Under the pieces are notes generated by a model. The model saw only the letters and a list, made by a program, of their open reading frames with translations. It had not been told where the DNA came from and did no database searches. Source: a virus. From it: 64,000 nt of DNA. Shown here in pieces: positions 96 to 59,045 of the stretch. The DNA lies in IMG/VR virus record IMGVR_UViG_3300021375_001810; one strand, given 5' to 3'. The stretch's first letter is position 1; the number at the start of each line of letters is the position of its first letter. The translations under genes were made by a program, and so were the position numbers.

Positions 96-308
96 TTAGG
101 CCCCTCCTCTATACACAGTACCACCTTTGGCAATGTGCATAATGTCACCACGACATAAACCTATGTCACGTAACTCATAATCTGTTAACTTCTGTAGGTC
201 GCTATAAACTTTTTTGTCATAGCTGGGCTTAATTGTTTTTTTAGTTGTCTTAAAAAAACTTTTAACTAACTCGCAAAAATTACAATATGTTAATGCTAGT
301 GTACTCAT
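96..308 (-). CDS. DUF1127 (YjiS-like) small protein
   Basis: Motif LQKLTDYELRDIGLCRGDI matches the DUF1127 L-x-x-L-x-D-x-x-L-x-DIG-L-x-R pattern. Start placed at ATG 308 (ATGA overlap with upstream stop). Confidence 0.8.
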   Translation of the reverse strand: MSTLALTYCNFCELVKSFFKTTKKTIKPSYDKKVYSDLQKLTDYELRDIGLCRGDIMHIAKGGTVYRGGA

Positions 309-517
309 TTGCCCCACCTCTCTTGTTCCATTGTTTTAAGATCCATCATAAGAGACTTTGCTGCTTCGTGATAGCCAGCACTAGCCAGTTGGCTTGCAGC
401 TCTTGCTGTACCAACATACTTTAATGTATAAGTTGTTTTTGCCCAAAGGCTATTTGCCTTTTTTGAAACCCATGCACAAAATGCACAGTAAAAAGTGTTT
501 ATTGTTTGCGTAGTCAT
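305..517 (-). CDS. small hypothetical protein in DUF1127 operon
   Basis: ORF translationally coupled on both sides (TAATG and ATGA overlaps). Confidence 0.7.
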   Translation of the reverse strand: MTTQTINTFYCAFCAWVSKKANSLWAKTTYTLKYVGTARAASQLASAGYHEAAKSLMMDLKTMEQERWGK

Positions 518-705
518 TATACCCATCCTTCTAAGTTTTGGTTTGTTAAGTGTGTTCTCGGCGGTGCCTTTCCGTCATGAGTAATCATGTACTCGTACGC
601 ATATCTCCAGTCACTTCCGTATTCTGTTTTTGCCCATACTTGGTAGTCGTGATTGGATGTCTTAGATCCAAACAAATACCGTAGGACTTTATTCACCTTT
701 TTCAT
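517..705 (-). CDS. small hypothetical protein, first gene of DUF1127 operon
   Basis: 62-aa ORF with AGGAG SD upstream on the minus strand. Confidence 0.7.
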   Translation of the reverse strand: MKKVNKVLRYLFGSKTSNHDYQVWAKTEYGSDWRYAYEYMITHDGKAPPRTHLTNQNLEGWV

Positions 706-1032: not shown

Positions 1033-1070
1033 TTTACACAATCTTTACACGACTGTAATCTAATCTACAT
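1033..1070 (+). promoter_or_regulatory. Pho-box/OmpR-family-like 11-bp-spaced direct repeats
   Basis: TTTACAC at 1033 and 1044; CTGTAAT at 1053 and TCTACAT at 1064; upstream of porin-like and PiT-like genes. Confidence 0.35.
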
Positions 1071-1115
1071 CTTTTATTCGTTAAATAAAATCGATGAGGA
1101 CAGGTGTTCTCATTT

Positions 1116-1151
1116 ATTGTGAGCGATGGGGTAAAGCCATCAAGCAAGGAG
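1116..1151 (+). repeat. 36-nt leader repeat copy 1 (hairpin plus SD)
   Basis: ATTGTGAGCGATGGGGTAAAGCCATCAAGCAAGGAG; 34/36 identical to 1529-1564. Confidence 0.9.
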
Positions 1152-1157
1152 AAAAAA

Positions 1158-1469
1158 ATGAAAGCAATAATCACAGCAATAGTGATGTACATTGTAACGA
1201 CTACAGCCTATGCAGGACCGTATGTTGAATACAAGCACGAACACCAACACAAAGACTGGAAGTTTGACAAGAATACAGAACATCTACGTCTTGGATACAA
1301 GGCTAAAAACAACCTTTACTTTGAACTAGGACCAATGACAAACGGCTATAGTTACGAAGCAGGTTACAAAGTAAAATTAAATAGATTTACTTTTAAAGGC
1401 AAACTAGAAACAAAAGACACAGGCATATCCAAATCAAAGTTAGAAACGGAAATTCGATATAACTTTTGA
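1158..1469 (+). CDS. secreted small beta-barrel/porin-like protein
   Basis: SD AAGGAG then ATG 1158; signal peptide (MKAIITAIV...AYA); alternating beta-strand pattern; C-terminal YNF. Confidence 0.65.
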   Translation: MKAIITAIVMYIVTTTAYAGPYVEYKHEHQHKDWKFDKNTEHLRLGYKAKNNLYFELGPMTNGYSYEAGYKVKLNRFTFKGKLETKDTGISKSKLETEIRYNF

Positions 1470-1498
1470 TTGACAGTAACATTGGGTGATGTTACAGT
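1470..1498 (+). promoter_or_regulatory. sigma70-type promoter with palindromic spacer
   Basis: TTGACA-N17-TACAGT; inverted repeat GTAACAT/ATGTTAC spans the spacer. Confidence 0.55.
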
Positions 1499-1528
1499 TA
1501 AAAAGTAGTAAGCAATTTCGCTTACTAG

Positions 1529-1564
1529 ATTGTGAGCGACGGGGTAAAGCCGTCAAGCAAGGAG
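1529..1564 (+). repeat. 36-nt leader repeat copy 2 (hairpin plus SD)
   Basis: ATTGTGAGCGACGGGGTAAAGCCGTCAAGCAAGGAG; the two differences from copy 1 form one compensatory base pair. Confidence 0.9.
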
Positions 1565-1573
1565 TAATAAAAA

Positions 1574-2545
1574 ATGGAAGCACTCACTTTATGGAGCCTT
1601 GTAGGGTTCCTGTTCGCAGCATACGCTGTAATTGCCAACGACTCAGTACAGACTCTCGGTACATGGATGGCATCAAACAATGAGAGATTCAACTACAAAA
1701 CTTTATGGGCAGCCGCAAGTACAGTGTTACTTGCAACCCTTTGGTATGGTTGGAGTGTAAATGGTGGCGACATCAGTTACGGAAGACTTAACAGGATACC
1801 CTGGCAAGAAGTACAATGGTATCATGCAGCCGCACCGGCAATCCTAGTTGCACTAACAAGACTAGGTGTACCAGTATCAACTTCGTTCTTGGTCTTATCA
1901 GTATTTGCTTCAACTTTCGTGTTGGAGAAAATGCTTATGAAATCGATAATGGGTTACGGTGTAGCCGCAGGTTTTGCATACATGGTATGGTTTGCTATAA
2001 CAAAGTATGCAAACAGTTGGTTTGACGAAACAAAACCAGTAAGCGAAGACAACAAAAGGTTTTGGCGTATTGCACAATGGATAGCAACTGGTGGCTTGTG
2101 GTGGACATGGCTTAGTCATGACATGGCAAACATCGCTGTATTCCTACCACGTGTAATTCCTGTGGACTTAATGATTCTAATTAGTTTTGTTTTTGTAGCA
2201 GGCATGTTCTTTATGTTTAGAGAACGAGGCGGTAAGATACAACAAATTGTTCTAGAGAAGCATAATACAAAGTATGTAAGATCAGCAACACTAATTGATT
2301 TATTCTACTGGTTGTGCTTGTACTTCTTTAAAGAGCTTAACGATATTCCTATGTCAACAACTTGGGTGTTCGTTGGTCTACTTGCAGGACGTGAACTAGC
2401 AATGGCAACATACTATGGTAAGCAAAAGACCAAGAGTGTGTTTCCACTAGTAGCAAAGGACTTTGGTAAGATGATGGTCGGACTTGGTGCTTCAGTAGCA
2501 TTGGTTCTTATGATCCATTATATTATTCTTCCTAACGGACTTTAA
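1574..2545 (+). CDS. PiT/PHO4-like phosphate (or sulfate) permease
   Basis: Multi-TM protein with duplicated PiT-like signatures IANDSVQT...PVSTS and SHDMANIA...PMSTT. Confidence 0.65.
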   Translation: MEALTLWSLVGFLFAAYAVIANDSVQTLGTWMASNNERFNYKTLWAAASTVLLATLWYGWSVNGGDISYGRLNRIPWQEVQWYHAAAPAILVALTRLGVPVSTSFLVLSVFASTFVLEKMLMKSIMGYGVAAGFAYMVWFAITKYANSWFDETKPVSEDNKRFWRIAQWIATGGLWWTWLSHDMANIAVFLPRVIPVDLMILISFVFVAGMFFMFRERGGKIQQIVLEKHNTKYVRSATLIDLFYWLCLYFFKELNDIPMSTTWVFVGLLAGRELAMATYYGKQKTKSVFPLVAKDFGKMMVGLGASVALVLMIHYIILPNGL

Positions 2546-2552
2546 TACTATC

Positions 2553-2586
2553 AAAGGTTATGTTTAACGACATGACCTTTTCTTTT
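2553..2586 (+). terminator. intrinsic terminator
   Basis: AAAGGTTATGT/ACATGACCTTT stem followed by T tract. Confidence 0.7.
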
Positions 2587-2651: not shown

Positions 2652-3254
2652 ATGAATAAAGTGAGAAAAACAATACTAACAGACGCAGATGGTGTACTTC
2701 TTGATTGGGAATGGGCATTTACTATTTGGATGGAACAGCATGGTCATGAAAAGGTAAAAGGATACCAGTTCATGTATGATATTGGAGAACGTTACGGAAT
2801 AACTAAAGATCAAAGTAGAAAATTAGTTAAACTGTTTAACGAAAGTGCAAGTATTGGCTTCCTACCTCCTTTGAGAGATGCTATGTATTATGTAAAACGT
2901 TTACATGAAGAACATGGTTACGACTTTATCTGTGTAACAAGTCTAAGCAAAAACAAAGATGCTTGTGAGTTGCGTAAAATGAATTTACGTAAACTGTTTG
3001 GTAAGAGTGCATTTAAAGGATTTAAATTTTTAGATACTGGTGCTGATAAAGACGATGCACTTGCTAAGTGGAAAGACAGTGGACTATGGTGGTTAGAAGA
3101 CAAACCAGAAAACTGTGAAGCAGGACTTAAAGCAGGACTTAAACCTATCCTAGTTGAACATGGACACAACATGGGTAATAAGAATTCAGAAATTACAGTA
3201 TGTAAGAACTGGAAAGAAATTTACAACACAATTTTAGAAAGGGATAACGTTTGA
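2652..3254 (+). CDS. HAD-family phosphatase / 5'(3')-deoxyribonucleotidase-like
   Basis: HAD motif I DADGVL, VTS, K, and LEDK motifs. Confidence 0.75.
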
Positions 3255-20312: not shown

Positions 20313-23300
20313 ATGCCAGCTGAAAATGGTAGTATTCTTGTAAGACGCGGACCTACAACTGACAGAGAAGTGTTTACACCGTTAAGTGGTGAAATAATAT
20401 ATGACACTACTACTGGACAGTTACATGTAGGTGACGCAGCAACAGCCGGCGGCAAAACAGTATTTGGTGATAAAGTTAAAGTTGATAGTGATGGCAACTT
20501 ATCAGAAATATATATGCGAGGTGAAGAGCCTAGACCTGCACCAGTTGAAGGATTATTTCGTTACAATGCTAACACACAAAGTTTAGAATACTCCGATGGT
20601 AATACATTTTATCAAGTAGCATCGAGTCCTTTTACAGGCTCGTCAAACGTACTATATGTTTCAACAAATGGTAAGGACGATAACACATACGGTTCTAAGA
20701 GAGGACGTACTCCGGGTACAGCATTTAGAACACTAAACGCTGCTTGTAGAGAAGCTGACCGTGTTATGGAGAAAGCCGCTAAAGGCCTAGGCCCATATCA
20801 AAAATGGATTACATATACTAACGCATCTAACGCACAAGTTAGATCAACAGTAGCATCTATTAGCGACAATACTCCTTACAAGAACATTGAAATGTCTAAA
20901 GAGACATACGAACTAGATGCCACAACTGAGATAAGAAGTGGTATGCGTATTGTTGGCCAAAACAGTGGCGCAATTGGTTTAATAGAAGAATATACAAAAA
21001 ACGTAGGTAGTACATCAGATACACTAGTTATTGATGTTGAAAGCGGTGAGTTTGTACAAGGCGAACAAATTAAGTTTGGTAATGCTATTCCAAGTTTACC
21101 ATATCAAACTTATAATTCAGGAGCAACTGAATCTCCTGAAATAACTATTAGACTTGAAACAGGTATTTACTACGAACACTTTCCAATCAAAGTTCCAAAC
21201 AATGTTTCTATTAAAGGTGATGAATTTAGAAGAAGTATTATTCGACCAAGACCTGGACCAAGTGCAAGTCCGTATTCAGAGATAAGATTTAAACGTAATG
21301 CTGATAAACTTGAACTTGACCCAAATGTTGTCGGCGAACGTCCGTTTGGTGCTCACTACTTAACTGACCGTGCTAACTTAATATATAGTTTTGTTGCCAA
21401 TCCAGGTGCATACACTGACGACTATAATACATTGTTTGCTAGTAAGGTAACACTTCAAGATGCTGTAATTACTTTTATAACAAGTACATATCCTAGTTTA
21501 ACATATGATGTAGATAAGTGTAAACGTGATGTTGGCTATATTGTTGATGCTCTTTCAATAGACTTACGAGATGGTGGCAGATTAGAAACACTAAACAATG
21601 CATTAATGTATCAAGGTCAACTACCAGCAGACCAAGTAACAGAAACTGCTGCGGCGCTTGATTATCTTGCAACACAGATAGCACCTTTACTAACAACAGA
21701 TGCACAAGTAATATCAAATAGTTTTATAGGCGGCATTGCAAATATTATACGTGGTACAGGATTTAATGCTCCTAAAGAAAACGATACACTTGATGTATTT
21801 TTAATGAATGATGCTACTATTATTAGAAACCTATCTGTTCAAGGACATGGCGGATTTATGGAAGTGCTTGACCCAGAAGGTCAGATACTTACTAAATCAC
21901 CTTATACACAAACTTGTTCAAGTTTTAGTAAATCACTAGCACCTAAAGTAAGTTTTGCAGGTGGTATGTTTGTTGACGGGTTCTGTGGTAACCAAGATGC
22001 TAGAATTGTACAAGCAAACAGTACAACTGAAATTGTTATTGATAACATTTACAGAGAACCACAAACTCCGACAAGTTTCTTTATTGATGGTGTTAGATGG
22101 CAAATTAACAAAGTAGACAAAGTTGGAGTTGCTGCAGATCAATGGCGTTGCGTGTTGTCAGCAGATACTCCATGGACTGACGCACACTATGTAGTTATTA
22201 ACCCAGGGCAAACTTTACCAGCACTTCCGTATAACATAGAAGTATTAACAGCAGGTAATATATCCATGCTGTCAAATGACTTTACACAGGTTAACGATTT
22301 GGGTTATGGACTGTATACTACAAACGGTTCACGTGCAGAAGCTGTTAGTGTATTCTGTTATTACTGTCACGTAAGTTACCTTGCAGAAAACGGTTCGGAT
22401 ATTAGATCACTTAACGGCTCAACAGCATACGGTGACTATGCATTATTAGCAAGAGGTAGTGATCCTCTAGAAGTTAGTGACGATGTAGTACTAGCTGATG
22501 ATATGATTCAAACTGGTACAGCAATGACTGATGCTACCTACACAAATATACAAGGCGGCACAGTTATATATGTTGACAATCTTTCATATGCACCGTATAA
22601 CATTAGTGAAGTTGATGTTGATCATGGTGGAGCAAATAACGTATTAGGCGATCCAACTTATCTTACTAGATATGAAGTTATTAGTGTTAGTGCTGTTGAA
22701 TCAACTTCACCTCAATTATATCAACTTAATATTTCAGCAGGAGAAGCAAGTAACCCTGGTGTTCAAGTTACTATACCAGACGGAACTCCTGTAGTTTTAC
22801 GTAACAACCAAGTAATTAAGTATGATGACATATTAGATATTAACCCTACTAGACCAAGTACAGCATTACAGTATGACGATGATCCAGATAAAGTATATCG
22901 TGTACTAGCATATGATGTTGCCGGCTTGCCTGATAACGTAGCAAGGATTACATTGCGTGAATCGTATGATTATATTAAATTAGTAGTCGACGATACAGCA
23001 GGTAGTACATCTGGAACAGGACAAGTAGGCGATACAACTATCAGACTTGATACTGATTTAGATCCAAACGAAACAACAAGAGTTAATCTTGGTATTACAA
23101 CTGGACCTAAATACATCTTTGGATTTAATGATACTATACACCAAGTAACAGCATACAGAGATAAAGCCACAACAGGACAAACATATGCTGAAATAGATAT
23201 TACTCCAGCTCTTACTAAATCACTCGGCGGCTATCCAGATAAACCTACACTACGAGCAGGATTACCAGCTGGCGGACAAGCAGACATTACAGTAGGTATT

Positions 23301-26300
23301 AGTACACTTAGAGTTACAGGACATGATTTACTTGACATTGGTACAGGAAGTTATCAAACATCAAGTTACCCAAGAGAAATTTATGGTAAGCCAGAGATTG
23401 CTGCTAACCAAGCAAGGGAAGTAGTAGAAGAAGGTAAAGGGCGTGTGTTCTTTGTAACAACTGACCAAGACGGTAACTTTAGAGTTGGTGACTATTTTAA
23501 AGTTGACCAGGGAACAGGTACAGTTACTTTTGCCGCAAGTATTGCTCTTTCAAACTTAGACGGTATTGGATTTAAACGTGGTGTTGCCGTAAGTGAATTC
23601 AGTACAGACGACGGCATGACTGATAATGCAACTGACACTGTGCCAGTAGAAAGTGCTGTAAGAAATTATGTAAATCGTAGACTAGGGCTTAACCATGCAG
23701 GTGCAAGTGTACCAGGAATTATAGGACCGGGCTTCTTAGATCTAAATGGTTCTAATGCTATGGCTGGCAACTTAGACATGGACAGCAATAACATTGATAA
23801 TATCAGTGTGCTAACAGTAGCAACTCTTGATGCTACAACAAGATTAAGTGTTCCGTCAGCGGGAACAGTAGTAGGCGGAAATGTTGGTGATATAAAATAC
23901 AATACTGACACACAAAGATTTGAAGGTTACTTATCATCCAATCAATGGGGCTCATTAGGTGGAGTAAGTGATGTCGACGGTGACACTTATGTACAAGGCG
24001 AAACAACTCCAGGTAATGACAATGATGATTTAGATTTTTATACAGCAGGAACACAAAGATTACAAATTGACGAAACTGGTGATTTTAAATTTGGTGACGG
24101 ACTAAACAAAGTTACTATGGACTTTGCAACAGGTAATATCGTAACGCCTGGAGACATAGACGTTGCTACACTTGATGTAGGAACATCAGCAGAAATTGCA
24201 ACACTAAAAGTTGAGGACTTAACTGCAGGGCGAGTATTACTAGCAGGCACTAACGGAGAGATAGAAGATAGTGCAAACTTAACATTCAACGGGACCAAAC
24301 TAACAGTTGACGGCAATGCTGAGATTACTGGTAATGTAGTTATTGGTGGAAACATTACAATTGGTGATGCAGATACAGATTCAATTATAGTATCAGCAGA
24401 CTTTGAAGGCAATCTTATACCTGATACAGACGATTTATATGACCTAGGTACAAATACAAAACGTTGGAGTGAGCTGTTCCTAAATGACAAGTTAACTTTA
24501 AACGATTATATATTACCTTTACAAGACGGAACTAAAGGACAACTAGTAAGTACAGACGGACTAGGACAACTAGGATTTAGTGACAGTGATATCTTTGGTG
24601 GTAAAAGAGTTTATGTAAGTGCTGAAAAAGGTAATGATACAAATGACGGTGTAACAGCACCTGTAGCAACTATCAAACGTGCTATGCAAATTGCATCAGG
24701 CATGGTATACAATGTATCTAAAGATGTTGTAGACAGAGCTACAGTAATGGTTGCAACAGGCGAGTACATACTTGATAACCCTGTAATTATTCCAGACAAT
24801 GTTTCAATTGTAGGCGACAGTATTAGAACTGTAATTTTAAGACCAGCAAATGAAAACGAAGACATGTTTAGAGTGCGTAACGCTTCTTACATGTTTAACA
24901 TGACATTTAGAGATGCACTATCAGGAACTGTACCTATAGCAGCATTTAGATTTGCTGTAGCATTTGATAATCCAAATGATTCTGCTACAAGTAGAGCAGG
25001 ATACACAAACCTGCCTAACACACGAGTGTTAATAACTACTTCACCATATTTACAAAACTGTTCAGTAATCAGCTTCTTAGGTGCTAATGGTGTTGAAATA
25101 GACGGAGACCTTGTTGTTACTCCTAACACACCGGGTAATGCTATTGAAGCAGAGAATCCTGTAACACCAGAAGATGGACAGCCTGAACAAGGTAAGAGTA
25201 TGGTTGCTAATGCATTTACTATTCTATCCTTTGGAGGTGTAGCATGGCGTGTAATGAACGATGCATATGCACAGTTGGTTAGTTGTTTTGTTATTTTTGC
25301 AGAACAAGGGTGTTTAACACAGAACGGTGGTTATCTATCTATTACAAACTCAGCAACAAACTTTGGTTACTTTGCATTAAGGTCAACAGGTTATTCGCCA
25401 AGGGTATTTGACACTGACAAAGGTATTATTGGTAACGTTGGTGTTGTAGACAATGTACAAAATGTTAACATTGTAGGACTTCAACGTGATACTGTAAACC
25501 AATATGTAATGCGAGTAATGAACCTAGCAAGCCAAGACGTTACTAATACATTTAATAATGATACAGCAAGAGGGGTAACAGTATCGTTTACAGCAGGCAA
25601 TGCATCGGGTAATAGTATTGCTACAACTGGCAGTCATGGATTATCTACAGGTGATCTAGTACAATATAATAAAAATGGTAATTTAGAAATAGTAGGATTA
25701 CTTAACGAAGCAACTTACTATGTTTCTGTTGTCAATACAACTTCGCTACAATTATTCCATGATGCTGATCTAACTAAACCTGTTACGGGTGTTAATGGTG
25801 GATCAAGCACAGGAACTCATCAACTGTTACATGACTTTGAAGAAATATTCATTGACGAAGTTTTATCAAGCCATAATAACTACCAAGATGTTTATTTGCC
25901 AGCAGGTTCTTATACTGTTACTAAAGGAGCATTGATATCAGCAACATCAGGTAGTGATAATATTAGTGCAACTGTTGTAAACTTTGATAACAATATAATA
26001 ACAGTTTCAGTTGAAAAAGTACAAGAAGGTAGTGTTTCAGTAACTAACTTCTTTAGTACAGGTGCTGTTATAAATGCAGGAGAAATTAGTGTTAGTTCTG
26101 TAACAGTTAGCAATGTAGTTAATAGAACAGATTTAATTACAATTAATGCTGCTGTTAAGACTACTAAAAACAGACAAGTACAAAGTTTTGGTTTACTACA
26201 AGGTAATCAAGCATGGTTACATCGTCCAAGTATTACAAACTCATCAGCACACACTTGGGAATATAGCGGTAGTGGTGTTGACTATAATGCGTTACCAGAG

Positions 26301-29300
26301 AATGGTGGCGTAGGTGTTGACACATTTGAACAATACAGCGACTTGCCGGGTAGAGTATATACTTCAGGTACTAATGAACTTGGTGACTTTAAGATCGGTG
26401 ACTTTATTGTAGCATTTAACAGAACTGGTAATATCATATTTAGAAACCAAGTTAGTATTGGTGAATTAGACAGTTTGGCACTTAGCCTAAGTGGCGGTGT
26501 AAGAGTTACAGCAATTAGTAATGATCCAGACCTTGGCGACAATGATGTTGATGGAGCATTAGATTCAAGACTTGTAACACAGTTAGCAGTCAAATCGTTT
26601 ATGAACGATAGACTAGGAAACTTCATTGACAGAAATGTAAGTACTAATGCTGTACCAAGTGCCGTTGTTCAACTTAACAGTCAAGGTTTAATTAATCAAG
26701 ATCTTATTCCTCCAACAGGAGCATTTGAAAGTTTCACTGTAGACGAATACGGCGGACGATTAACTGTATCACAGGATATACCTGCTCCAAATATTAGTGC
26801 AGGTGATATTGTTGTAGAAACTTACCCTGAAATTGTGTTAAACCTAACAGGTGCTGTAACTGTTACAGCAGGCGACACTATTACACAGGCAACATCAGGC
26901 GCAACTGGTATTGTAAAAGAAAGTGGTACAACATCAACTCTTAAATTAGTAAACACAATTACAGGAACGTTTAATACAACAGACACTCTTAGTAGTAGCG
27001 GAACAGGAAATTTAGGTGCAAGTAGTGTACCTACTATTGTTTCACCAGTAAACTCAATTAATGATAACTACTTCTTAAAAACAGACAAAATAAGTCAGTT
27101 CCTAGTATTACAAGATGGTGGCACACCAAGTTTTACAACTATAATTTCTAACAGCACACCAATTCAAGGTGCAACAAGTAAAGCGGTAGCAACTGTAACT
27201 AGCCATGTTGTTGGTGTTCTTAATGCTGTTGATGTAGCAACGTTACCAGGAGGCAGTGGATATACTACACCAGGTACATATGAAAATGTAAGCATACAAG
27301 GCGGAAATGGTTCTGGTGCAAAAGCAAATATCATTGTTGGAGCAACTGGAACAATTACTAGTTTTGATGTTACAGTAGGCGGGTCGTTCTATACTGAATC
27401 TGATAACGTTACAATTAATGATGCAGATGTAGGTGGTCGTTCAGGTGGTAGTCCAATAAGCATTGGTGTAACTGATATACAAAATAGATTATATGTTGAT
27501 CTAAATGCAGATACAGGATTACAATTTACAGCAAGTAATATAAATTTAGACTTTATAGTTGATGACAATCCTCCAACAGATACACTAGCACAGCAAGGAC
27601 AGTCAATTAAAGCATTCGTAGCCACAAGTACAGGCAGTGGCGGAGATGTTGATGTTATTAATGACAAAATTGTTTTCCAATCAGCACACGGATTACAAAA
27701 CGGAGATCCGTTGTATTATGATAGTAATGCAAATACACCATTAGGTGGTCTTCTCAACAATACTACATACTATGCAAAAGTTCTTACAACTACAGAAATT
27801 GAACTTTTTGCAAATTACGGTTTAACAGCCGCTGGGAAAGTAGACATAACATCATCAAGTAGCGGAACACACAACTTTAAAGTGTTCAATGTTAATCAAT
27901 ATGCTAATACTTTCTTCGTACCAATCCATGGGCTATCCACTGGAGATGCGATCAAGTTTGAATCATCATCTCCACCTACTGGGGTCGACAGCGGCGACTT
28001 TTTCTTTGTTGGATCTGTAACACTAAACAGTTTTACACTACACGAAGCAAGAGGTGCGGCACTAGACAGTGTTGCTGGATTGACAGTATCGCCTGTTAAT
28101 ATAACTAGCCAAGGCGGCGCTGTAAATGCAACACTAACAGAACAAAATGTTATCATAGTAGACGATGTTAATACTAGTGGCGACTTAGAATCAAGTTGGA
28201 GTAGTTTAAGTACAACAACTATTGATGCAGGAAATATTATTAGTGGTGTAGTAGATACATCTAGACTTGCCAGTGGAAATGCAAACGACAAATCATTCTT
28301 AAGAGGAGATCAAACTTGGGCAACGGCTGTACAGTCTATTACAAATACTACAGCAGGCGATCCAATAACCTTAACAAGTGCAGATGTTAACGGGGATAAT
28401 TTTTATAACAATGTAGACATTAAGATTGAAAAAGCAAGTTATACTAACCCAGCAGCACCAAGTGTAGGAACAGAAACATTAGGTGTTGCCAGTTACCACT
28501 TTGATCACTTTGAAATTGACGCTAATGGACGAGTAACTACTAAGGCATCAGGCAACGGTGGTGTTATTGATGCTGATAAACTTGATAATCAAACAGGTGC
28601 TTATTACTTAAACCCAGTTAACTTATCAAGAGGAGTTCCAATACAACGAGGCGGAACTAATTTAATCAATTATGCACAAGGTGATTTATTATATGCTGGT
28701 TCAGTACTAGGAGGCGCACCAGCAGACTATAATGAGACACTAACAAAATTAACCATTGGTAGTGCTAGAAATGTACTACAAGTTAAAGCAGACGGAACAG
28801 CACCTCAATGGACAAACGCCTTAAGTATTGCAACTCTTGAAACAAGTAGTAATGTAACTATTGGTGGTGACTTAACTGTTAATGGTACAACAACAACTGT
28901 TAATACAGAAACAATTAACCTTGCTGATAATATTATTTTACTTAATAGTAATCTTGCAGGTAACGTTGCACCAACACAAAATTCAGGTATTGAAATTGAA
29001 AGAGGTAATGCTGCTAACAAAACATTAATTTGGAATGAAGGCGATGATGTATGGACAGTTGGCGCTGAGAAATTTACAGCAGGAACACTTGAAGGAAATC
29101 TAGACTGGTCATACTTGCAGAATGTAGTAGACCCTGTAGTTACAGTAACACTAACAGGTGACGTAACGGGTACAGGCACAGCAACAATGACCAACTTAGG
29201 TAGTGCAACAGCAAGTTTTGCAACTACTATTACAGCCAATAGTGTTGCACTCGGTACAGACACAAGTGGTCAGTATGCATCAACAATTACAGCAGGTGAC

Positions 29301-31232
29301 GGTATATCTGCTACTACCGCTAGTGCCGATGACGGAACAGCATATACTGTATCACATGCTGATACATCTAGTATAGCAAATGTAGATCTTGGCGCTGAAG
29401 AATTTGTAAATGAAATTACCTTTGACGAGTTTGGCCATGTTCTAACTGTAGGAAGTGCTACTGTTACAGCCCCAAGTAATGAAGAAATTACAATTACAGC
29501 AGGCACTGACCTTTCGACAGGCGGAGCATTTACACTTAATCAAGCTGCTGCAGAAACAATTACAATTGATCACGCAGATATTACTAGATCCGATACAACA
29601 GGTAGTAGTAGTTTGTCATTCGCAGGAACGTTTGATGTGATAGACAGCATTACATCAAATGCTAGAGGTCATATAACAGCGGTCAATGTTAAAACACTTA
29701 CAATGCCAGCTGCTGGTGCTAACGACAATACTACATATTCAACAAGTGTAGTACAAGCAAGTGCAGGTAATGACAGCAATCCAATAATACGTTTAACAGA
29801 CAGCGATGGCACCAATGATGATATTACAATTAGTGGCGGAGGAGACGTAAGTGTAACTAGAACAAGTGCATCAGCATTTAAAGTAGAAGCCACTTTCCCA
29901 ACTGACAACAATACAACTTACGATTTAAGTTTAGTTGATAACTTAACAACTAATGACTCAGTTGATATTAAACTTAATCCTAGTAGCGGTACTGCAGACC
30001 TAGTAACAGTTGAAGCAGGTACAAATATAACTATAGAGGTTGATGGTGACAATGCTAACGGATTTATAATTAGCTCAACTGATACTACAGTTGATGTAGA
30101 CGATACTCCTGTTGATGGAGCAACTACATCAGCAATATCAAGTAATTGGGCATTTGATAATGTTAAGACAGCAGTACCAGTAAATGCGTTATTTACAGAT
30201 ACTAATACAAACCAACTTACTACTTGGACCTTAAGAGACAGTGGCGATGATGATGTAACTATTGGTCAAGGTAAATTTATTAAGTTTGTAACGGCTACAG
30301 GAGCATTAGGAACCAATACAACAGGATCTGGAACAACCGCAGATCCTTACGTAGTAACACTTACATCTCCAAATGATAATACTCAACTTGCAATATCTAG
30401 TACCCCAACTAATGGAGCAACAACTACAGCAATTAGCTCAGACTGGGCATTTGATAATGTTAAAACAGCAGTACCAGCAAATGCGTTATTTACAGATAAT
30501 AATACAACATATAATATTGCAACAGATAGTACAGCAGGTCTTGTTAAAATAGGTGCTACACCAAGTGCTTCTAATTATTATGCAATTGAATTAGACAGCA
30601 ATGATAGAATGTATGTCAATGTGCCGTGGACTGATACTGATAATAAATCATATACAAGTTATATTGAAAATAATCAAACTTCTACAGCAGAGTGGAATTT
30701 AGTATTCGTTGACGGATCATCAGATAATACTTCTGCTGCACAATTAAAAGAATTAACTGTAGACGAACATAGTAGTGGTACTGGCGGATTAACTTATGTA
30801 CCTGGCTCAGCAACACTAAGGACAACTAAGTTCCAAGGTACAGCGACATCAGCAGAATATGCGGATTTGGCGGAAGTTTATTCAAGTGATATAAACTATA
30901 GACCAGGTACTGTTGTAATGTTCGGCGGCGAGCAGGAAGTTACTACTTCAACTGGTTTAGCAACAACTAAAGTAGCAGGTGTTGTATCAACTGACCCTGC
31001 ATACTTAATGAACTCAGAAGCAAAAGGTGTTGCTGTTGCACTTAAAGGACGAGTACCATGTTATGTAGTAGGACCAATTAACAAAGGCGACTTACTAGTA
31101 ACTAGTTCAATTCCGGGCGTTGCATGTAGAACTGAGTCGTGGGTAGGCGGTGCTGTTATTGGTAAGTCAATTGAAGACTGTCCAAAAGAGTTTGAAGTAA
31201 GATTAATAGAAATAGCAATAGGATCAATATAA
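20313..31232 (+). CDS. giant tail fibre/baseplate structural protein (3639 aa)
   Basis: T/G/N/S-rich; two YVS.(N/K)G.D.N modules, three HGL..GD repeats, C-terminal YADLAE..PGTVV chaperone-like domain; next to PAAR. Confidence 0.85.
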   Translation: MPAENGSILVRRGPTTDREVFTPLSGEIIYDTTTGQLHVGDAATAGGKTVFGDKVKVDSDGNLSEIYMRGEEPRPAPVEGLFRYNANTQSLEYSDGNTFYQVASSPFTGSSNVLYVSTNGKDDNTYGSKRGRTPGTAFRTLNAACREADRVMEKAAKGLGPYQKWITYTNASNAQVRSTVASISDNTPYKNIEMSKETYELDATTEIRSGMRIVGQNSGAIGLIEEYTKNVGSTSDTLVIDVESGEFVQGEQIKFGNAIPSLPYQTYNSGATESPEITIRLETGIYYEHFPIKVPNNVSIKGDEFRRSIIRPRPGPSASPYSEIRFKRNADKLELDPNVVGERPFGAHYLTDRANLIYSFVANPGAYTDDYNTLFASKVTLQDAVITFITSTYPSLTYDVDKCKRDVGYIVDALSIDLRDGGRLETLNNALMYQGQLPADQVTETAAALDYLATQIAPLLTTDAQVISNSFIGGIANIIRGTGFNAPKENDTLDVFLMNDATIIRNLSVQGHGGFMEVLDPEGQILTKSPYTQTCSSFSKSLAPKVSFAGGMFVDGFCGNQDARIVQANSTTEIVIDNIYREPQTPTSFFIDGVRWQINKVDKVGVAADQWRCVLSADTPWTDAHYVVINPGQTLPALPYNIEVLTAGNISMLSNDFTQVNDLGYGLYTTNGSRAEAVSVFCYYCHVSYLAENGSDIRSLNGSTAYGDYALLARGSDPLEVSDDVVLADDMIQTGTAMTDATYTNIQGGTVIYVDNLSYAPYNISEVDVDHGGANNVLGDPTYLTRYEVISVSAVESTSPQLYQLNISAGEASNPGVQVTIPDGTPVVLRNNQVIKYDDILDINPTRPSTALQYDDDPDKVYRVLAYDVAGLPDNVARITLRESYDYIKLVVDDTAGSTSGTGQVGDTTIRLDTDLDPNETTRVNLGITTGPKYIFGFNDTIHQVTAYRDKATTGQTYAEIDITPALTKSLGGYPDKPTLRAGLPAGGQADITVGISTLRVTGHDLLDIGTGSYQTSSYPREIYGKPEIAANQAREVVEEGKGRVFFVTTDQDGNFRVGDYFKVDQGTGTVTFAASIALSNLDGIGFKRGVAVSEFSTDDGMTDNATDTVPVESAVRNYVNRRLGLNHAGASVPGIIGPGFLDLNGSNAMAGNLDMDSNNIDNISVLTVATLDATTRLSVPSAGTVVGGNVGDIKYNTDTQRFEGYLSSNQWGSLGGVSDVDGDTYVQGETTPGNDNDDLDFYTAGTQRLQIDETGDFKFGDGLNKVTMDFATGNIVTPGDIDVATLDVGTSAEIATLKVEDLTAGRVLLAGTNGEIEDSANLTFNGTKLTVDGNAEITGNVVIGGNITIGDADTDSIIVSADFEGNLIPDTDDLYDLGTNTKRWSELFLNDKLTLNDYILPLQDGTKGQLVSTDGLGQLGFSDSDIFGGKRVYVSAEKGNDTNDGVTAPVATIKRAMQIASGMVYNVSKDVVDRATVMVATGEYILDNPVIIPDNVSIVGDSIRTVILRPANENEDMFRVRNASYMFNMTFRDALSGTVPIAAFRFAVAFDNPNDSATSRAGYTNLPNTRVLITTSPYLQNCSVISFLGANGVEIDGDLVVTPNTPGNAIEAENPVTPEDGQPEQGKSMVANAFTILSFGGVAWRVMNDAYAQLVSCFVIFAEQGCLTQNGGYLSITNSATNFGYFALRSTGYSPRVFDTDKGIIGNVGVVDNVQNVNIVGLQRDTVNQYVMRVMNLASQDVTNTFNNDTARGVTVSFTAGNASGNSIATTGSHGLSTGDLVQYNKNGNLEIVGLLNEATYYVSVVNTTSLQLFHDADLTKPVTGVNGGSSTGTHQLLHDFEEIFIDEVLSSHNNYQDVYLPAGSYTVTKGALISATSGSDNISATVVNFDNNIITVSVEKVQEGSVSVTNFFSTGAVINAGEISVSSVTVSNVVNRTDLITINAAVKTTKNRQVQSFGLLQGNQAWLHRPSITNSSAHTWEYSGSGVDYNALPENGGVGVDTFEQYSDLPGRVYTSGTNELGDFKIGDFIVAFNRTGNIIFRNQVSIGELDSLALSLSGGVRVTAISNDPDLGDNDVDGALDSRLVTQLAVKSFMNDRLGNFIDRNVSTNAVPSAVVQLNSQGLINQDLIPPTGAFESFTVDEYGGRLTVSQDIPAPNISAGDIVVETYPEIVLNLTGAVTVTAGDTITQATSGATGIVKESGTTSTLKLVNTITGTFNTTDTLSSSGTGNLGASSVPTIVSPVNSINDNYFLKTDKISQFLVLQDGGTPSFTTIISNSTPIQGATSKAVATVTSHVVGVLNAVDVATLPGGSGYTTPGTYENVSIQGGNGSGAKANIIVGATGTITSFDVTVGGSFYTESDNVTINDADVGGRSGGSPISIGVTDIQNRLYVDLNADTGLQFTASNINLDFIVDDNPPTDTLAQQGQSIKAFVATSTGSGGDVDVINDKIVFQSAHGLQNGDPLYYDSNANTPLGGLLNNTTYYAKVLTTTEIELFANYGLTAAGKVDITSSSSGTHNFKVFNVNQYANTFFVPIHGLSTGDAIKFESSSPPTGVDSGDFFFVGSVTLNSFTLHEARGAALDSVAGLTVSPVNITSQGGAVNATLTEQNVIIVDDVNTSGDLESSWSSLSTTTIDAGNIISGVVDTSRLASGNANDKSFLRGDQTWATAVQSITNTTAGDPITLTSADVNGDNFYNNVDIKIEKASYTNPAAPSVGTETLGVASYHFDHFEIDANGRVTTKASGNGGVIDADKLDNQTGAYYLNPVNLSRGVPIQRGGTNLINYAQGDLLYAGSVLGGAPADYNETLTKLTIGSARNVLQVKADGTAPQWTNALSIATLETSSNVTIGGDLTVNGTTTTVNTETINLADNIILLNSNLAGNVAPTQNSGIEIERGNAANKTLIWNEGDDVWTVGAEKFTAGTLEGNLDWSYLQNVVDPVVTVTLTGDVTGTGTATMTNLGSATASFATTITANSVALGTDTSGQYASTITAGDGISATTASADDGTAYTVSHADTSSIANVDLGAEEFVNEITFDEFGHVLTVGSATVTAPSNEEITITAGTDLSTGGAFTLNQAAAETITIDHADITRSDTTGSSSLSFAGTFDVIDSITSNARGHITAVNVKTLTMPAAGANDNTTYSTSVVQASAGNDSNPIIRLTDSDGTNDDITISGGGDVSVTRTSASAFKVEATFPTDNNTTYDLSLVDNLTTNDSVDIKLNPSSGTADLVTVEAGTNITIEVDGDNANGFIISSTDTTVDVDDTPVDGATTSAISSNWAFDNVKTAVPVNALFTDTNTNQLTTWTLRDSGDDDVTIGQGKFIKFVTATGALGTNTTGSGTTADPYVVTLTSPNDNTQLAISSTPTNGATTTAISSDWAFDNVKTAVPANALFTDNNTTYNIATDSTAGLVKIGATPSASNYYAIELDSNDRMYVNVPWTDTDNKSYTSYIENNQTSTAEWNLVFVDGSSDNTSAAQLKELTVDEHSSGTGGLTYVPGSATLRTTKFQGTATSAEYADLAEVYSSDINYRPGTVVMFGGEQEVTTSTGLATTKVAGVVSTDPAYLMNSEAKGVAVALKGRVPCYVVGPINKGDLLVTSSIPGVACRTESWVGGAVIGKSIEDCPKEFEVRLIEIAIGSI
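30147..30498 (+). repeat. 55-bp direct repeat inside tail gene (30147-30201 and 30444-30498)
   Basis: 53/55 identity; encodes WAFDNVKTAVP.NALFTD. Confidence 0.9.
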
Positions 31233-43631: not shown

Positions 43632-44090
43632 ACAAGACTAACTACCTTAGACATCCCATCACTACATAGAGCTACTATCGGCTTCGATAGAATTTTCAGC
43701 GAGCTAGAACGCCAGTTTGAAAATAGCCCTAATAAGAATGGATATCCACCATACAACATTGCACAAATCAACGAAGATGAGTATATGATCTCATTGGCTG
43801 TTGCCGGCTTTGGTATGGATAATCTTTCAATTGAAAAGGATAACAAACTTTTAACAATTGAAGGTACGGCTCCTAAAGGAGATGAAGACGTTAATTACCT
43901 ACATAAAGGTATTGGCGGACGCAACTTCCGTAGGGAGTTCACACTTGCTGATCACGTAGAAGTGAAAAGTGCAGGCCTTGAACTAGGTATGCTAAACATT
44001 CATCTAGTACGTGAAGTTCCAGAAGAACTACAGCCTAAGAAAATTAAGATCAATGAAGGTCTTACTATTGAAGGCGAAACAGGCAAGTAA
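43629..44090 (+). CDS. small heat shock protein (IbpA/Hsp20)
   Basis: IGFD, YPPYNI, LAVAGF, YLHKGI..R.F.R.F.LA, GML, PKKIKI. Confidence 0.95.
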   Translation: MTRLTTLDIPSLHRATIGFDRIFSELERQFENSPNKNGYPPYNIAQINEDEYMISLAVAGFGMDNLSIEKDNKLLTIEGTAPKGDEDVNYLHKGIGGRNFRREFTLADHVEVKSAGLELGMLNIHLVREVPEELQPKKIKINEGLTIEGETGK

Positions 44091-49617: not shown

Positions 49618-50742
49618 ATGCAGTTTGCTAGGTATATCCTCGCTGCACTACTTTGGTTACCAATTACAGCATATGCAAATATTGGACAAGTAGCTGATCA
49701 AAAGGGTAATGGTGCGATTGAAAGAGGTAGAGATTTAGTTGGTAGTGGTGTTGGTACTGAAGTACAAAGTATGGATGCTGCTGTTACTACCAACGGAACT
49801 ATGCGAATCGACTTTATTGACGATACTCGAGTAGATATCACACAACATAGTAAACTTATTATTGACGAATTTGTGTTTGATCCAGCGAATGATATCGGAT
49901 CACTAAGTCTAAAAGCGTCATTAGGAACAGTAAGGTACGCATCTGGACAAATTGCAAAGAAGTATAAGCAAAATGTTAAGATTCGTACGCCAAGTGCAAC
50001 AATCGGTGTACGTGGTACTGATTTCGTAATGGTTGTGGACGAAGTTGGCGGAAGTTTAATTACGCTTCTACCAAGTTGTGACTCTGCTGGAAACTGTTAT
50101 ACTGGAGAGATAACAGTGGAAACAGACGCAGGAATGGTTATTATGAATCAAGCATTCCAAGCAACGGCAACACAGACTTCTTCACAGCCTCCGACGCCGC
50201 CCAGACTGTTAGACTTACCAGAAGATATGATTGATACTCTTTTAATTGTAAGAAAGAAAACACCATGGGTTGAAGACGAGGAAGAATGGAAAAAGGCAAA
50301 GAAACAAACAGCAGATATTTTAGGTATTGATTATTTAGAGTTTGATGGATTAGATGTTGAAGTATTTCAAGACCAAGAAGAAATATGGCACACTGAACTT
50401 GACGAAACAGACTTTATGTTAGGCGACTTATTAATAGATATTTTAGAACAACTTAATATTCAATTAGCAGAACTATTTAAAGATGAATTTGAAAAACAAA
50501 AAACAGACTTTAGCGGAGTTAAGTTAGGGTTTGATGCAACAACAGGAATAAGAATTACAGACGTAGATCCATCATATCTATTTGAAAGATATGACAATAT
50601 AGGAACTAACAATGTATACCTAAAGTTGCGTAAAGGAAGCGGAGGATATACTATCAATTTACAACAGGGCGATTTCGAATTAATAGATTATAGAATCGGA
50701 ACTGGTCCTAATAGCATTGACATATATCAAAATAGCCAATGA
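49618..50742 (+). CDS. secreted FecR-domain protein
   Basis: Signal peptide; IDF.DDT.V.I, L..G.VRY, IRTPSATIGVRGTDF motifs. Confidence 0.88.
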   Translation: MQFARYILAALLWLPITAYANIGQVADQKGNGAIERGRDLVGSGVGTEVQSMDAAVTTNGTMRIDFIDDTRVDITQHSKLIIDEFVFDPANDIGSLSLKASLGTVRYASGQIAKKYKQNVKIRTPSATIGVRGTDFVMVVDEVGGSLITLLPSCDSAGNCYTGEITVETDAGMVIMNQAFQATATQTSSQPPTPPRLLDLPEDMIDTLLIVRKKTPWVEDEEEWKKAKKQTADILGIDYLEFDGLDVEVFQDQEEIWHTELDETDFMLGDLLIDILEQLNIQLAELFKDEFEKQKTDFSGVKLGFDATTGIRITDVDPSYLFERYDNIGTNNVYLKLRKGSGGYTINLQQGDFELIDYRIGTGPNSIDIYQNSQ

Positions 50743-51920
50743 AGATAACAGGAACACATTTAGGAATATTAATATTAGTAATGTACTTTGCGGCGCAGAC
50801 TGTTGACGCTAACGAGATTTACATCAACCAGGCTGGTGATAACATTGACATGACTATTGTTCAAGATGGTGAAAATAATGTTATTAGTTCACTTACTGGT
50901 AACGCCACTAAAGCCACAATCTCCGGTAATAACACAAGCACAACGTTTACACAAACAGGCGATGACAATGATATAGGCGTGTATATGAGTGCTGGCAATG
51001 GACAACAGACAGTTACACAAACAGGCAATACTAACTATGCTATTGTAGATTGCCACGGTAATAACTGTTCAGCAACCATTATACAAAATGGTAATAATAA
51101 TGCGGCAAATTTAGAGTTTGGTGACGGCGGTGATTACGATAACACTGGTACAATTACACAAGACGGTGACTACAATACGGCTGGTACAGAAATCAATGGC
51201 GACGACAACACTGTTGTAATGGATCAGGATGGTGACTACAATAGTATTGGAGGAATTACCAGCGCACCAATTACTGGTGATAACAATGTACTATCAATGA
51301 TACAAGATGGCGACTATATGACTTTTGAAGGACATCTTGTAGGTAGTAATAATAGTTTAACATCATTTCAAGGCGGCGGAGCCAACAGTAGTTTTATTCG
51401 TGTTAGTACAGTTGGAAGCAATAACACAGGTGATCTACGTCAAGGTAAGAAGATGGACGGATCAGTTGACGGCAATGATAGTGGTAACCATGAACAATAC
51501 ATAACAGTAGTTGGCGATGGTAATACTGTTGATACGTCACAGGTAAACAGTAACGGTGCAAGTTCAGATCATCATATGGCACATATTATAACAGGTGATA
51601 GTAACACACTAAGTCACTTGCAATATGCAGATAGTAAAAAACAAGGCTTCATCGAAATAACAGGCGACAACAATAATGTCGAACTTGAACAAAGAAATAG
51701 TGCAACTCATTTTGCTGACATAGTATTAACTGGAGACGGACATTCTGTATACGGTGAGCAACGTGGGTATGGATCGCATAATATAACAGTAGATCTAACT
51801 AACTCAGGCGGAGCATACAATATGTCAACTACACAAAATTCATCAACTGCACAAACTTACACACTAACCGGGAGTTGTGCAAATGCTAACGGATGTGGTA
51901 TTATAATTACCCAAAACTAA
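50739..51920 (+). CDS. curlin-repeat (CsgA/B-like) protein
   Basis: Signal peptide; repeats QDGENN, QTGDDN, QTGNTN, QNGNNN, QDGDYN (x2). Confidence 0.8.
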   Translation: MKITGTHLGILILVMYFAAQTVDANEIYINQAGDNIDMTIVQDGENNVISSLTGNATKATISGNNTSTTFTQTGDDNDIGVYMSAGNGQQTVTQTGNTNYAIVDCHGNNCSATIIQNGNNNAANLEFGDGGDYDNTGTITQDGDYNTAGTEINGDDNTVVMDQDGDYNSIGGITSAPITGDNNVLSMIQDGDYMTFEGHLVGSNNSLTSFQGGGANSSFIRVSTVGSNNTGDLRQGKKMDGSVDGNDSGNHEQYITVVGDGNTVDTSQVNSNGASSDHHMAHIITGDSNTLSHLQYADSKKQGFIEITGDNNNVELEQRNSATHFADIVLTGDGHSVYGEQRGYGSHNITVDLTNSGGAYNMSTTQNSSTAQTYTLTGSCANANGCGIIITQN

Positions 51921-58986: not shown

Positions 58987-58987
58987 G

Positions 58988-59016
58988 TTGACATCAGTAG
59001 TATATGATGCTATAAT
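58988..59016 (+). promoter_or_regulatory. sigma70 promoter
   Basis: Perfect TTGACA-N17-TATAAT with TGn. Confidence 0.85.
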
Positions 59017-59045
59017 ATACATATAACCTAAAAAAGAAGGCGTGT

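Follow-up and report, generated by a model that had tools for sequence, protein, structure and literature searches.

Two copies of a 36-nt element stand in front of two adjacent genes in a 64,000-nt stretch of viral DNA (IMG/VR record IMGVR_UViG_3300021375_001810), which is referred to below, at its full length, as the window. Comparison of related sequences indicates that this element is a real, widespread and previously undescribed phage-specific leader RNA tied to phosphate uptake. It lies next to the Shine-Dalgarno sequence (SD) of genes encoding PiT-like, PstS-like and small outer-membrane-like proteins. The element is judged to be beyond chance because it recurs in at least 120 viral contigs of IMG/VR and shows covariation at every pair of its stem. 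The reading that we favour, at a probability of roughly 0.45, is that of a phage-specific cis-regulatory RNA in the 5′ untranslated region (5′-UTR), which would serve as a protein operator in the leaders of phosphate-acquisition genes.

Two copies of the element in the window

A pattern search of the 64 kb found exactly two copies of the element, at 1116-1151 (copy 1) and 1529-1564 (copy 2), both on the plus strand, against an expectation of 0 copies in shuffled sequence. An earlier note, made from the letters of the window, had described such a duplication ahead of both genes, with the compensatory exchange of a U-A for a C-G pair as the only difference between the copies, and both observations were confirmed. 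The sole differences are T1127/A1139 in copy 1 and C1540/G1552 in copy 2, and in each copy the two bases are partners in a 5-bp stem (1125-1129 with 1137-1141; 1538-1542 with 1550-1554) that carries the loop GGTAAAG. The probability that two random differences in 36 positions would hit one of the five pairs is 5/630. Both copies end in the SD AAGGAG, which is separated by 6 nt from the ATG at 1158 and by 9 nt from the ATG at 1574.

A covariance model (R1) scored copy 1 at 66.4 bits (E 7.8e-12) and copy 2 at 61.4 bits (E 1e-10). In copy 1 the stem described above (P1) and its loop (GGUAAAG, 1130-1136) are enclosed by a second helix, P0 (1117-1120 with 1144-1147). Between the two helices lies an internal loop of GAGC (1121-1124) opposite AA (1142-1143), and the SD occupies 1146-1151. 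The corresponding parts of copy 2 are P0 at 1530-1533 with 1557-1560, the internal loop at 1534-1537 opposite 1555-1556, the P1 stem already given with its loop at 1543-1549, and the SD at 1559-1564. The 5-bp hairpin that had been taken for the whole functional unit therefore gives way to a larger one, in which P0 and P1 are the helices and the internal and terminal loops are both conserved.

Covariation and architecture of the element

Base pairing was analyzed in a protein-anchored alignment of 46 distinct sequences and in a second set of 87 sequences. In the 46 distinct sequences P1 showed double-sided changes at 5/5 pairs and 100% of cells contained standard pairs, a percentage that is biased towards the structure since the alignment was collected partly with a pattern requiring the five pairs and partly with a P1-aware model. 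The many double-sided changes are independent of this collection bias, and shifting the partner column as a control lowered pairing to 7-39%. The variants of P1 include GACGG/CCGUC, GAUGG/CCAUC, GCAGG/CCUGC, GAUGU/ACAUC, AACGA/UCGUU, GCGAU/AUCGC, GCAAG/CUUGC, GACAA/UUGUC and GACGU/ACGUC, and G-U pairs are present. The predicted pair probability of P1 was 0.98 in all members.

P0 is absent from the structure of the covariance model. Both of its inner pairs form in 87/87 and 46/46 sequences, one as U-G, C-G or U-A and the other as G-C, A-U or U-A, and the incompatible combination C-A was never seen. A third pair is formed in 72/87 and 41/46 sequences. P0 is a weak AU-rich helix of 2-4 bp, and its 3′ strand leads into the SD, in the window overlapping the first two bases of AAGGAG. 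The internal loop consists of an invariant G-A-G and one free base opposite an invariant A-A, and the 7-nt terminal loop has the consensus K-G-U-A-R-A-D. Approximately 14 unpaired nucleotides, clustered in these two loops, are near-invariant. In the order P0, internal loop, P1 and 7-nt loop, the entire module spans about 32 nt.

Pairwise identity was 0.85 in the 28-nt core, 0.67 at third codon positions of the next 50 codons and 0.33 in the region just upstream, so the core is conserved above synonymous sites. As far as sequence can indicate, selection acts at the RNA level on the leader. Of the cis-regulatory RNA proposed in the earlier note, what has stood is that the 5′-UTR holds an RNA structure under selection, located beside the SD and common to both genes of the uptake pair.

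Several other pairings were rejected. An outer helix G12-C34/C13-G33 with an AA bulge had C13-G33 broken in 12/87 sequences, and P0 replaces it. A long-range pairing between GUGAG in the 5′ flank and CUCAC in codons 4-5 of the PiT-like gene, suggested by predicted folds, had duplex energies no better than those of shuffled coding sequence, and for pstS the energies were worse still. A pseudoknot between the U-rich linker and the GUAAA loop was dismissed because the linker is unconserved. None of the other GUAAA-loop hairpins in the window is related to the element, and the one at 44081 belongs to a stop-codon/terminator region.

Occurrence of the element

The IMG/VR contigs were identified using a 25-nt core pattern in which the two covarying positions were left free, and all matches listed were on the sense strand, just 5′ of an SD and start codon. 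To avoid motif-based ascertainment, 80 viral loci were gathered through the PiT-like protein. The exact core was present in 24 of the 75 protein-anchored loci with enough upstream sequence, and most of the others carried variants. Model R1 detected the motif in approximately 75 of the 79 protein-anchored loci searched, standing either immediately 5′ of the PiT-like gene or at the head of a short operon whose last gene is the PiT-like one. Each of ten contigs searched whole (34-221 kb, among them one 221-kb genome rated complete) contained one or two copies, and for this reason the element is not a general promoter, ribosome-binding-site (RBS) enhancer, terminator or shuffling repeat. The cassette formed by the element and its genes was found in differing gene neighbourhoods.

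The carriers all seem to come from a single broad lineage of large T4-like phages. Among the products encoded in the window are NrdAB, phosphoribosyl pyrophosphate (PRPP) synthetase and tail proteins; NrdA shares 70% identity with its counterparts in T4-like cyanomyoviruses, and we assign the window to a large uncultured T4-like marine myovirus. An identification of the 30-45-kb carrier contigs as podoviruses proved wrong, as a CheckV-type completeness of 10-17% marks them as fragments of large genomes.

Outside these viral contigs the element was not found in any of the collections searched. Scanning positions 850-1750 of the window against Rfam 15 with cmscan at E≤10 returned three chance-level matches, none of which overlaps the element. 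The motif was absent upstream of 80 bacterial PiT-like homologues, whose upstream sequences differ, and from 5 whole genomes, and 401 Pelagibacterales genomes yielded one pattern match that does not fold; a host origin of the motif was rejected on these grounds. Searching 50,697 cultured phage records gave no match to the motif, and no DNA or protein match to the cassette. In the literature nothing relevant was found on a phage or pstS riboswitch, on a pelagimyophage phosphate leader or on this element. Pelagibacter genomes (L149-L173) contain a conserved leader of their own before the PiT-like homologue, in the approximately 100 nt before position 3001 (...CTTAAGTCATGAATCGATAGGAACCGAAAACAATAATATAAAGGAG). 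This leader is unrelated to the phage element, and its conservation may merely reflect the close kinship of the genomes.

Genes downstream of the element

The element precedes only PiT-like, PstS-like and small outer-membrane-like genes, together with one gene for a 55-aa Cys-rich protein. Among 111 distinct instances, 95 are located before a PiT-like gene and 5 before a gene for a protein of about 325 aa; the remaining instances are located before genes for small signal-peptide proteins or for the 55-aa Cys-rich protein, which heads a PiT operon. The protein of about 325 aa (e.g. L008:3090-4070) is of the PstS type, matching PF12849 (PBP_like_2) with E 5.5e-47, and on TIGR02136 it scores 144.9 bits, under the cut-off of 206.6. 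A scan aimed at starts other than those of PiT-like genes yielded 20 loci only, all of the PstS-like, small outer-membrane-like or 55-aa kinds. Because three unrelated families with nothing in common but a role in phosphate uptake bear the same leader, we regard this pattern as the signature of a regulon. The link of the leader to phosphate, which the earlier note had raised as a possibility, is much strengthened now that PstS-like genes are seen to carry it. One phage PstS-like gene beside a DUF1127 gene (L306:4323-4480, minus strand) was found without the element and with a different long leader, so not every phage pstS of this group uses the element.

In the window, copy 1 precedes a gene (1158-1469, plus strand) for a 103-aa protein of the Phage_OMP family (PF24653, E 2.7e-8, 34.5 bits against a cut-off of 27; phrog_417). 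The PF24653 match spans residues 2-62 of 103, and the protein has a signal-peptide-like N-terminus and is outer-membrane beta-barrel-like. Copy 2 precedes a gene (1574-2545, plus strand) for a 323-aa polytopic membrane protein that matched no Pfam or PHROG family above threshold. Its score on PF01384 (PHO4) is below the gathering score (E 2.6, 7.4 bits). A few relatives were likewise sub-threshold, P0116 (80% identical) reaching 28.1 bits against a cut-off of 33.7, and a sequence profile of the family matched no solved structure in the PDB. An AlphaFold model made with 24 relatives in the input had a pLDDT of 90.8. When this model was compared with the PDB using Foldseek, the sole significant match was 6L85, a Na+-dependent phosphate transporter from Thermotoga (E 9e-5, probability 1.0, TMq 0.62), and the runner-up had E 0.16. 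The modelled structure thus places the protein, distantly, within the PiT (PHO4) fold and bears out, at fold level, its earlier description as PiT-like, with mixed evidence at the level of sequence. Both the fold and the co-regulation with PstS-like genes suggest phosphate as its substrate. The family is very large and unannotated, comprising 7,946 clusters at 90% identity among 8,000 candidates scored and 814 representatives at 50%, and bacterial homologues from Pelagibacter, Flavobacteriales, Micavibrio and others are 54-64% identical to the window protein. A terminator-like hairpin followed by a T-run (2553-2580, plus strand) closes the two-gene cassette.

Upstream hairpins and promoter-like sequences

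Each copy of the element is preceded on the plus strand by another hairpin (hairpin 1), located at 1093-1114 for copy 1 (9 bp, 4-nt loop; present in both the minimum free energy (MFE) and the centroid fold) and at 1506-1527 for copy 2 (8 bp, 6-nt loop). These are the hairpins of unrelated sequence that had been noticed earlier, with coordinates right within 1-2 bases. Almost the whole family shares this arrangement, a sequence-unrelated hairpin lying 2-10 nt 5′ of the element, and the 42 nt upstream of the element had a mean MFE of -9.7 kcal/mol, compared with -4.4 kcal/mol in shuffles. The notion of a two-hairpin leader holds in that both hairpins are present; the first one is variable, falls into several mutually unrelated classes and does not form a conserved aptamer domain.

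One of these classes has a covarying stem of 7-10 bp and a GGUAAAG-type loop followed by 6-8 U, which makes it terminator-like, and it is found directly after a late-promoter-like ATAAATA (e.g. L016:12983-13016, L216, L226, L232). In predicted folds the U-run pairs with AGGAG, and this class of hairpin 1 may act as an attenuator or anti-SD. Another class carries the loop AACGUCGAG on covarying stems (e.g. L093:5593-5684, L045:25-116, L001:641-732). The CGUCG in this loop is complementary to CGACG on the 5′ side of the element, with no compensatory change seen, and could represent an alternative pairing or a second recognition site. A further class consists of GUAAC-N5-GUUAC and compensated variants of it.

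Promoter-like motifs sit just 5′ of hairpin 1, which suggests that the mRNA probably starts at hairpin 1 or close to it. For copy 1 a consensus scan gave a putative promoter TCTACA-16-TAAAAT at 1064-1091 (plus strand, 9/12 matches), in a region containing TAAATAA, which resembles the T4-type late motif TATAAATA. For copy 2 it gave a putative sigma-70-like promoter TTGACA-17-TACAGT with TG at 1470-1498 (plus strand, 10/12), and hairpin 1 starts about 7 nt after its -10-like hexamer. Within the family, TAAATA from the T4-late-like (A)TAAATA is found at most 50 nt upstream in 69/116 distinct members, and the alternative upstream motif is a sigma-70-like TTGACA-17-TAACNT.

Related motifs were observed elsewhere in the window. 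ATAAATA occurs 14 times on the plus strand and 3 times on the minus strand between 9244 and 58416, often 10-50 nt before the start of an open reading frame (ORF; e.g. 13752, 45680, 52889), a distribution that fits a T4-type late promoter motif in this phage. The full TATAAATA is not enriched in the window (2 found vs 6.5 in shuffles). A perfect sigma-70 consensus, TTGACA-17-TATAAT (12/12), lies at 2601-2629 before the phrog_420 gene at 2652, and the 39-nt region of this promoter has a 72%-identical copy at 58987-59025.

Repeats of the GTTACA type were also observed. GTAACA...GTTACAG in the window (1470-1500) overlaps the promoter of copy 2, GTTACA(G)-type direct repeats approximately 11 bp apart precede the PiT-like homologue in Pelagibacter (L131, L132, L137, upstream of 3001), and TTACAC-N4-TGTCAC precedes pstS at L016:12933-12960. 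If these repeats are Pho boxes, as they may be, phosphate control at transcription would be layered over the RNA element.

The promoter-like sequences and Pho-box-like GTTACA repeats near the inverted repeat, together with the mobility of the cassettes, would suit a site acting at the DNA level, be it the operator of a dimeric factor, a Pho-box-like site or the recombination joint of the cassette. The variation within the element makes such a site highly improbable. Its half-sites change by compensatory substitution, giving at least 9 stem sequences, and they include the G-U pairs, which in DNA would be G-T. All copies have the sense orientation and are flanked by a promoter-like motif on the 5′ side and the SD on the 3′ side, leaving no space for a downstream -10 element, and their number of one or two per genome is unlike that of T4-type shuffling repeats.

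The arrangement of the two hairpins also bears on whether the leader is a constitutive mRNA module. Through its 5′ hairpin and the GC-rich hairpin, such a module would guard the mRNA against decay from the 5′ end and insulate the RBS from AT-rich surroundings, allowing high and unregulated expression, and it would travel with a mobile gene cassette. It would account for a hairpin 1 that sits at the predicted 5′ end with its sequence free to vary, for the high pair probability of P1 in all members, for an A-rich stretch and SD that are partly accessible, and for the differing neighbourhoods of the cassette. However, a stabiliser needs no invariant bases in its terminal and internal loops, and here these bases are conserved above synonymous sites. 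It would also have to be recruited to three unrelated families sharing only a function, and to have found no other use in genomes of up to 221 kb. We consider a constitutive module decidedly unlikely.

Proposed mechanism and a candidate partner

Most likely, the leader would co-ordinate translation of the PiT-like, PstS-like and outer-membrane genes. Under the protein-operator reading, the mRNA would begin with the variable hairpin and the module of about 32 nt would fold some 2-10 nt further on. A trans-acting factor would recognise the internal loop, the terminal loop or both, and its binding would lock P0 and set a bulky complex at the 5′ edge of the RBS. In this way one signal could set translation for all three, PiT-like permease, PstS-like binding protein and outer-membrane partner alike, and the same binding would perhaps set mRNA stability.

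The effector is more likely a protein than a metabolite, for four reasons. In one class of leaders hairpin 1 bears a second GGUAAAG-type loop, a duplication suggestive of repeated sites for a protein. The carriers seem to form one T4-like lineage, making a lineage-specific protein plausible. Third, no cellular copies were found, and fourth, no conserved alternative fold was found.

These same observations bear on the possibility that the leader is a riboswitch, in which P0, internal loop, P1 and terminal loop would form a small aptamer and a ligand would stabilise P0 and gate the adjacent SD. The ligand could be orthophosphate, polyphosphate, PRPP, an alarmone or a cation reporting phosphorus status. 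As in riboswitch classes, there is a covarying structured domain in the 5′-UTR (P1 at 5/5 pairs, the inner P0 pairs always) and a shared downstream function that points to a ligand, the association with three unrelated families of uptake proteins being strict. The near-invariant unpaired nucleotides lie between covarying helices, in a size and layout resembling those of small translational classes whose closing helix touches the SD (preQ1-I, THF-II, NAD+-II), and no protein gene is universally linked within ±4-5 kb. On the other hand, the element is very small, it has no Rfam match even at E 10, and no cellular copy was found in the 80 bacterial PiT-like loci, 5 whole genomes and 401 Pelagibacterales genomes, whereas to our knowledge all known riboswitch classes have cellular members. 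Predicted ensembles contained no conserved mutually exclusive fold involving the SD or a terminator, with P0 abutting or overlapping the SD. Taken together, a riboswitch appears unlikely, and very doubtful in the specific form of a leader that senses orthophosphate, or a metabolite directly reporting phosphorus status, and gates translation of the phage phosphate-uptake genes.

For the protein-operator reading, the best available candidate for a trans-acting partner is a phage DUF1127 protein, which might alternatively be a modulator of PhoR. In the window its gene (96-317, minus strand; PF06568, E 5.6e-7, 29.6 bits against a cut-off of 23.3) encodes a small protein and is divergent from the cassette. 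A relative at L035:8429-8677 scores 42.2 bits on PF06568, and phage DUF1127 genes are also present at L009:5559-5816 and approximately 45 other loci. About one third of the loci have it as a divergent neighbour at a distance of 0.5-2 kb upstream, and 4/5 whole contigs contain it in single copy; in cultured phages DUF1127 was found in 9/50,697 records, all of them phages of Alphaproteobacteria. Conversely, among 33 DUF1127-anchored viral loci, gathered with a single protein query, the motif was on the opposite strand in 14, at 250-600 nt before the DUF1127 start in 13 and at 1.6 kb in one. No regulator gene is universally linked to the element within ±4-5 kb, and besides the PiT-like family no family is present in more than about 35% of loci. 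The DUF1127 protein CcaF1 is reported to bind RNAs with paired stem-loops (PMC8034643), and bacterial DUF1127 proteins are reported to restrain the Pho regulon by binding PhoR (PMC12501420); a cassette for phosphate uptake would be compatible with either role. The phage may use DUF1127 to manipulate host phosphate signalling.

Several observations weigh against the protein operator or against this partner, in addition to the structural bias in the collection of the P1 alignment. The SD had a mean unpaired probability of 0.55 in predicted ensembles and its pairing partners vary among hairpin-1 classes; it is not consistently sequestered, and its occlusion is therefore offered as a model only. 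In 19/33 DUF1127-anchored loci there was no motif within 5 kb, and DUF1127 adjoins the cassette in a minority of loci, being 17-30 kb away in two whole contigs. Finally, the published phosphate mechanism of DUF1127 is a protein-protein interaction with PhoR and not RNA binding (PMC12501420).

Many phage DUF1127 proteins end in N-L-[KR]-G-W-V, and an unrelated 62-aa ORF in the window (517-705, minus strand) ends in NLEGWV. A second family of small proteins (65-73 aa; window 305-526, minus strand; L048:2284-2478), encoded upstream of the cassette, accompanies the DUF1127 gene in 39 loci. It contains a conserved ...A(A/S)xL(S/A)xxGYH(K/E)(E/A)AK(A/S)LM... segment and matches no Pfam family. Further away in the window, an ORF of 3,639 aa (20313-31232) has internal repeats (e.g. 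64-nt repeats at 30147 and 30444). A protein encoded at 50739-51920 contains repeated GDN...QDGD units (copies between 50833 and 51318), which bring to mind the curlin-like repeats that have been reported in pelagimyophages (PMC7029224).

Implications

One small RNA module in front of three unrelated uptake proteins would define a viral phosphate-uptake regulon by sequence alone, and the covariance model flags such genes, including those of the very large unannotated PiT-like family. Across much of the surface ocean, growth is limited by phosphate. The pstS carried by phages, a textbook example of an auxiliary metabolic gene, is known to be controlled at transcription, via host PhoB; to this the leader would add a second, post-transcriptional layer, one specific to a large group of marine, uncultured T4-like phages. 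Being short and easily synthesised, the RNA suits screens for ligands or proteins, and phage DUF1127, whose family has lately been connected with both PhoR and RNA binding, provides a concrete candidate partner. If the leader were an orthophosphate or metabolite riboswitch, it would be the first riboswitch to respond to phosphate and also the first riboswitch class restricted, as far as known, to viruses. Should a small molecule turn out to be the effector, whether a phosphate riboswitch exists, a question of long standing, could be tested directly.

Comparison with known systems

The T4-type translational operators (gp43, RegA, gp32) likewise belong to T4-like phages and consist of a short hairpin just 5′ of the SD, where the bound protein blocks 30S binding. 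The 5-bp stem and 7-8-nt loop resemble those described for the gp43 operator. These operators show no sequence similarity to the element, and they are autogenous or act on many early genes, whereas the element marks a small phosphate-uptake regulon and has no known binding protein.

The small riboswitches preQ1-I, THF-II/folE, NAD+-II/pnuC and guanidine-II share with the element a core of about 30-35 nt in which conserved unpaired bases are set on covarying helices, a position before transporter genes, and a closing helix whose 3′ strand touches the SD. The element differs from them in having no Rfam match at E 10, no cellular representatives found and no pseudoknot or alternative fold detected.

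Similarities to the boxB of lambda-type nut sites are that both are phage-borne and have a 5-bp stem, a purine-rich loop and a second hairpin nearby. The core of the element's loop (GUAAA/GUAGA) fits the GNR(N)A pentaloop pattern of boxB, but it is contained in a 7-nt loop with non-canonical closing residues. The variable residue of the loop corresponds to the one at which lambda nutL and nutR differ from each other. The alignment contains no boxA-like CGCUCUUA, its 5′ flank (U)GUGAGN forming P0 and the internal loop, and no N-like protein was identified, although no search aimed at one was made. The element is located at the RBS of single genes, whereas the lambda nut site is downstream of early promoters. 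The stem-loop pairs bound by CcaF1 and the Smaug recognition elements are, like the element, paired stem-loops with a conserved loop sequence (PMC8034643). The loop of the CcaF1 target is CUGGC and that of the element GGUAAAG, and CcaF1 acts on the maturation and turnover of small RNAs (PMC8034643).

Cyanophage pstS under the control of PhoB and a Pho-box is likewise a case of phage-borne phosphate-acquisition genes under dedicated control. There the site is a transcriptional DNA element upstream of the -10 sequence, whereas the element described here, itself part of the transcript, shows RNA covariation and adjoins the SD. The Pho-box and leader-RNA layers may coexist.

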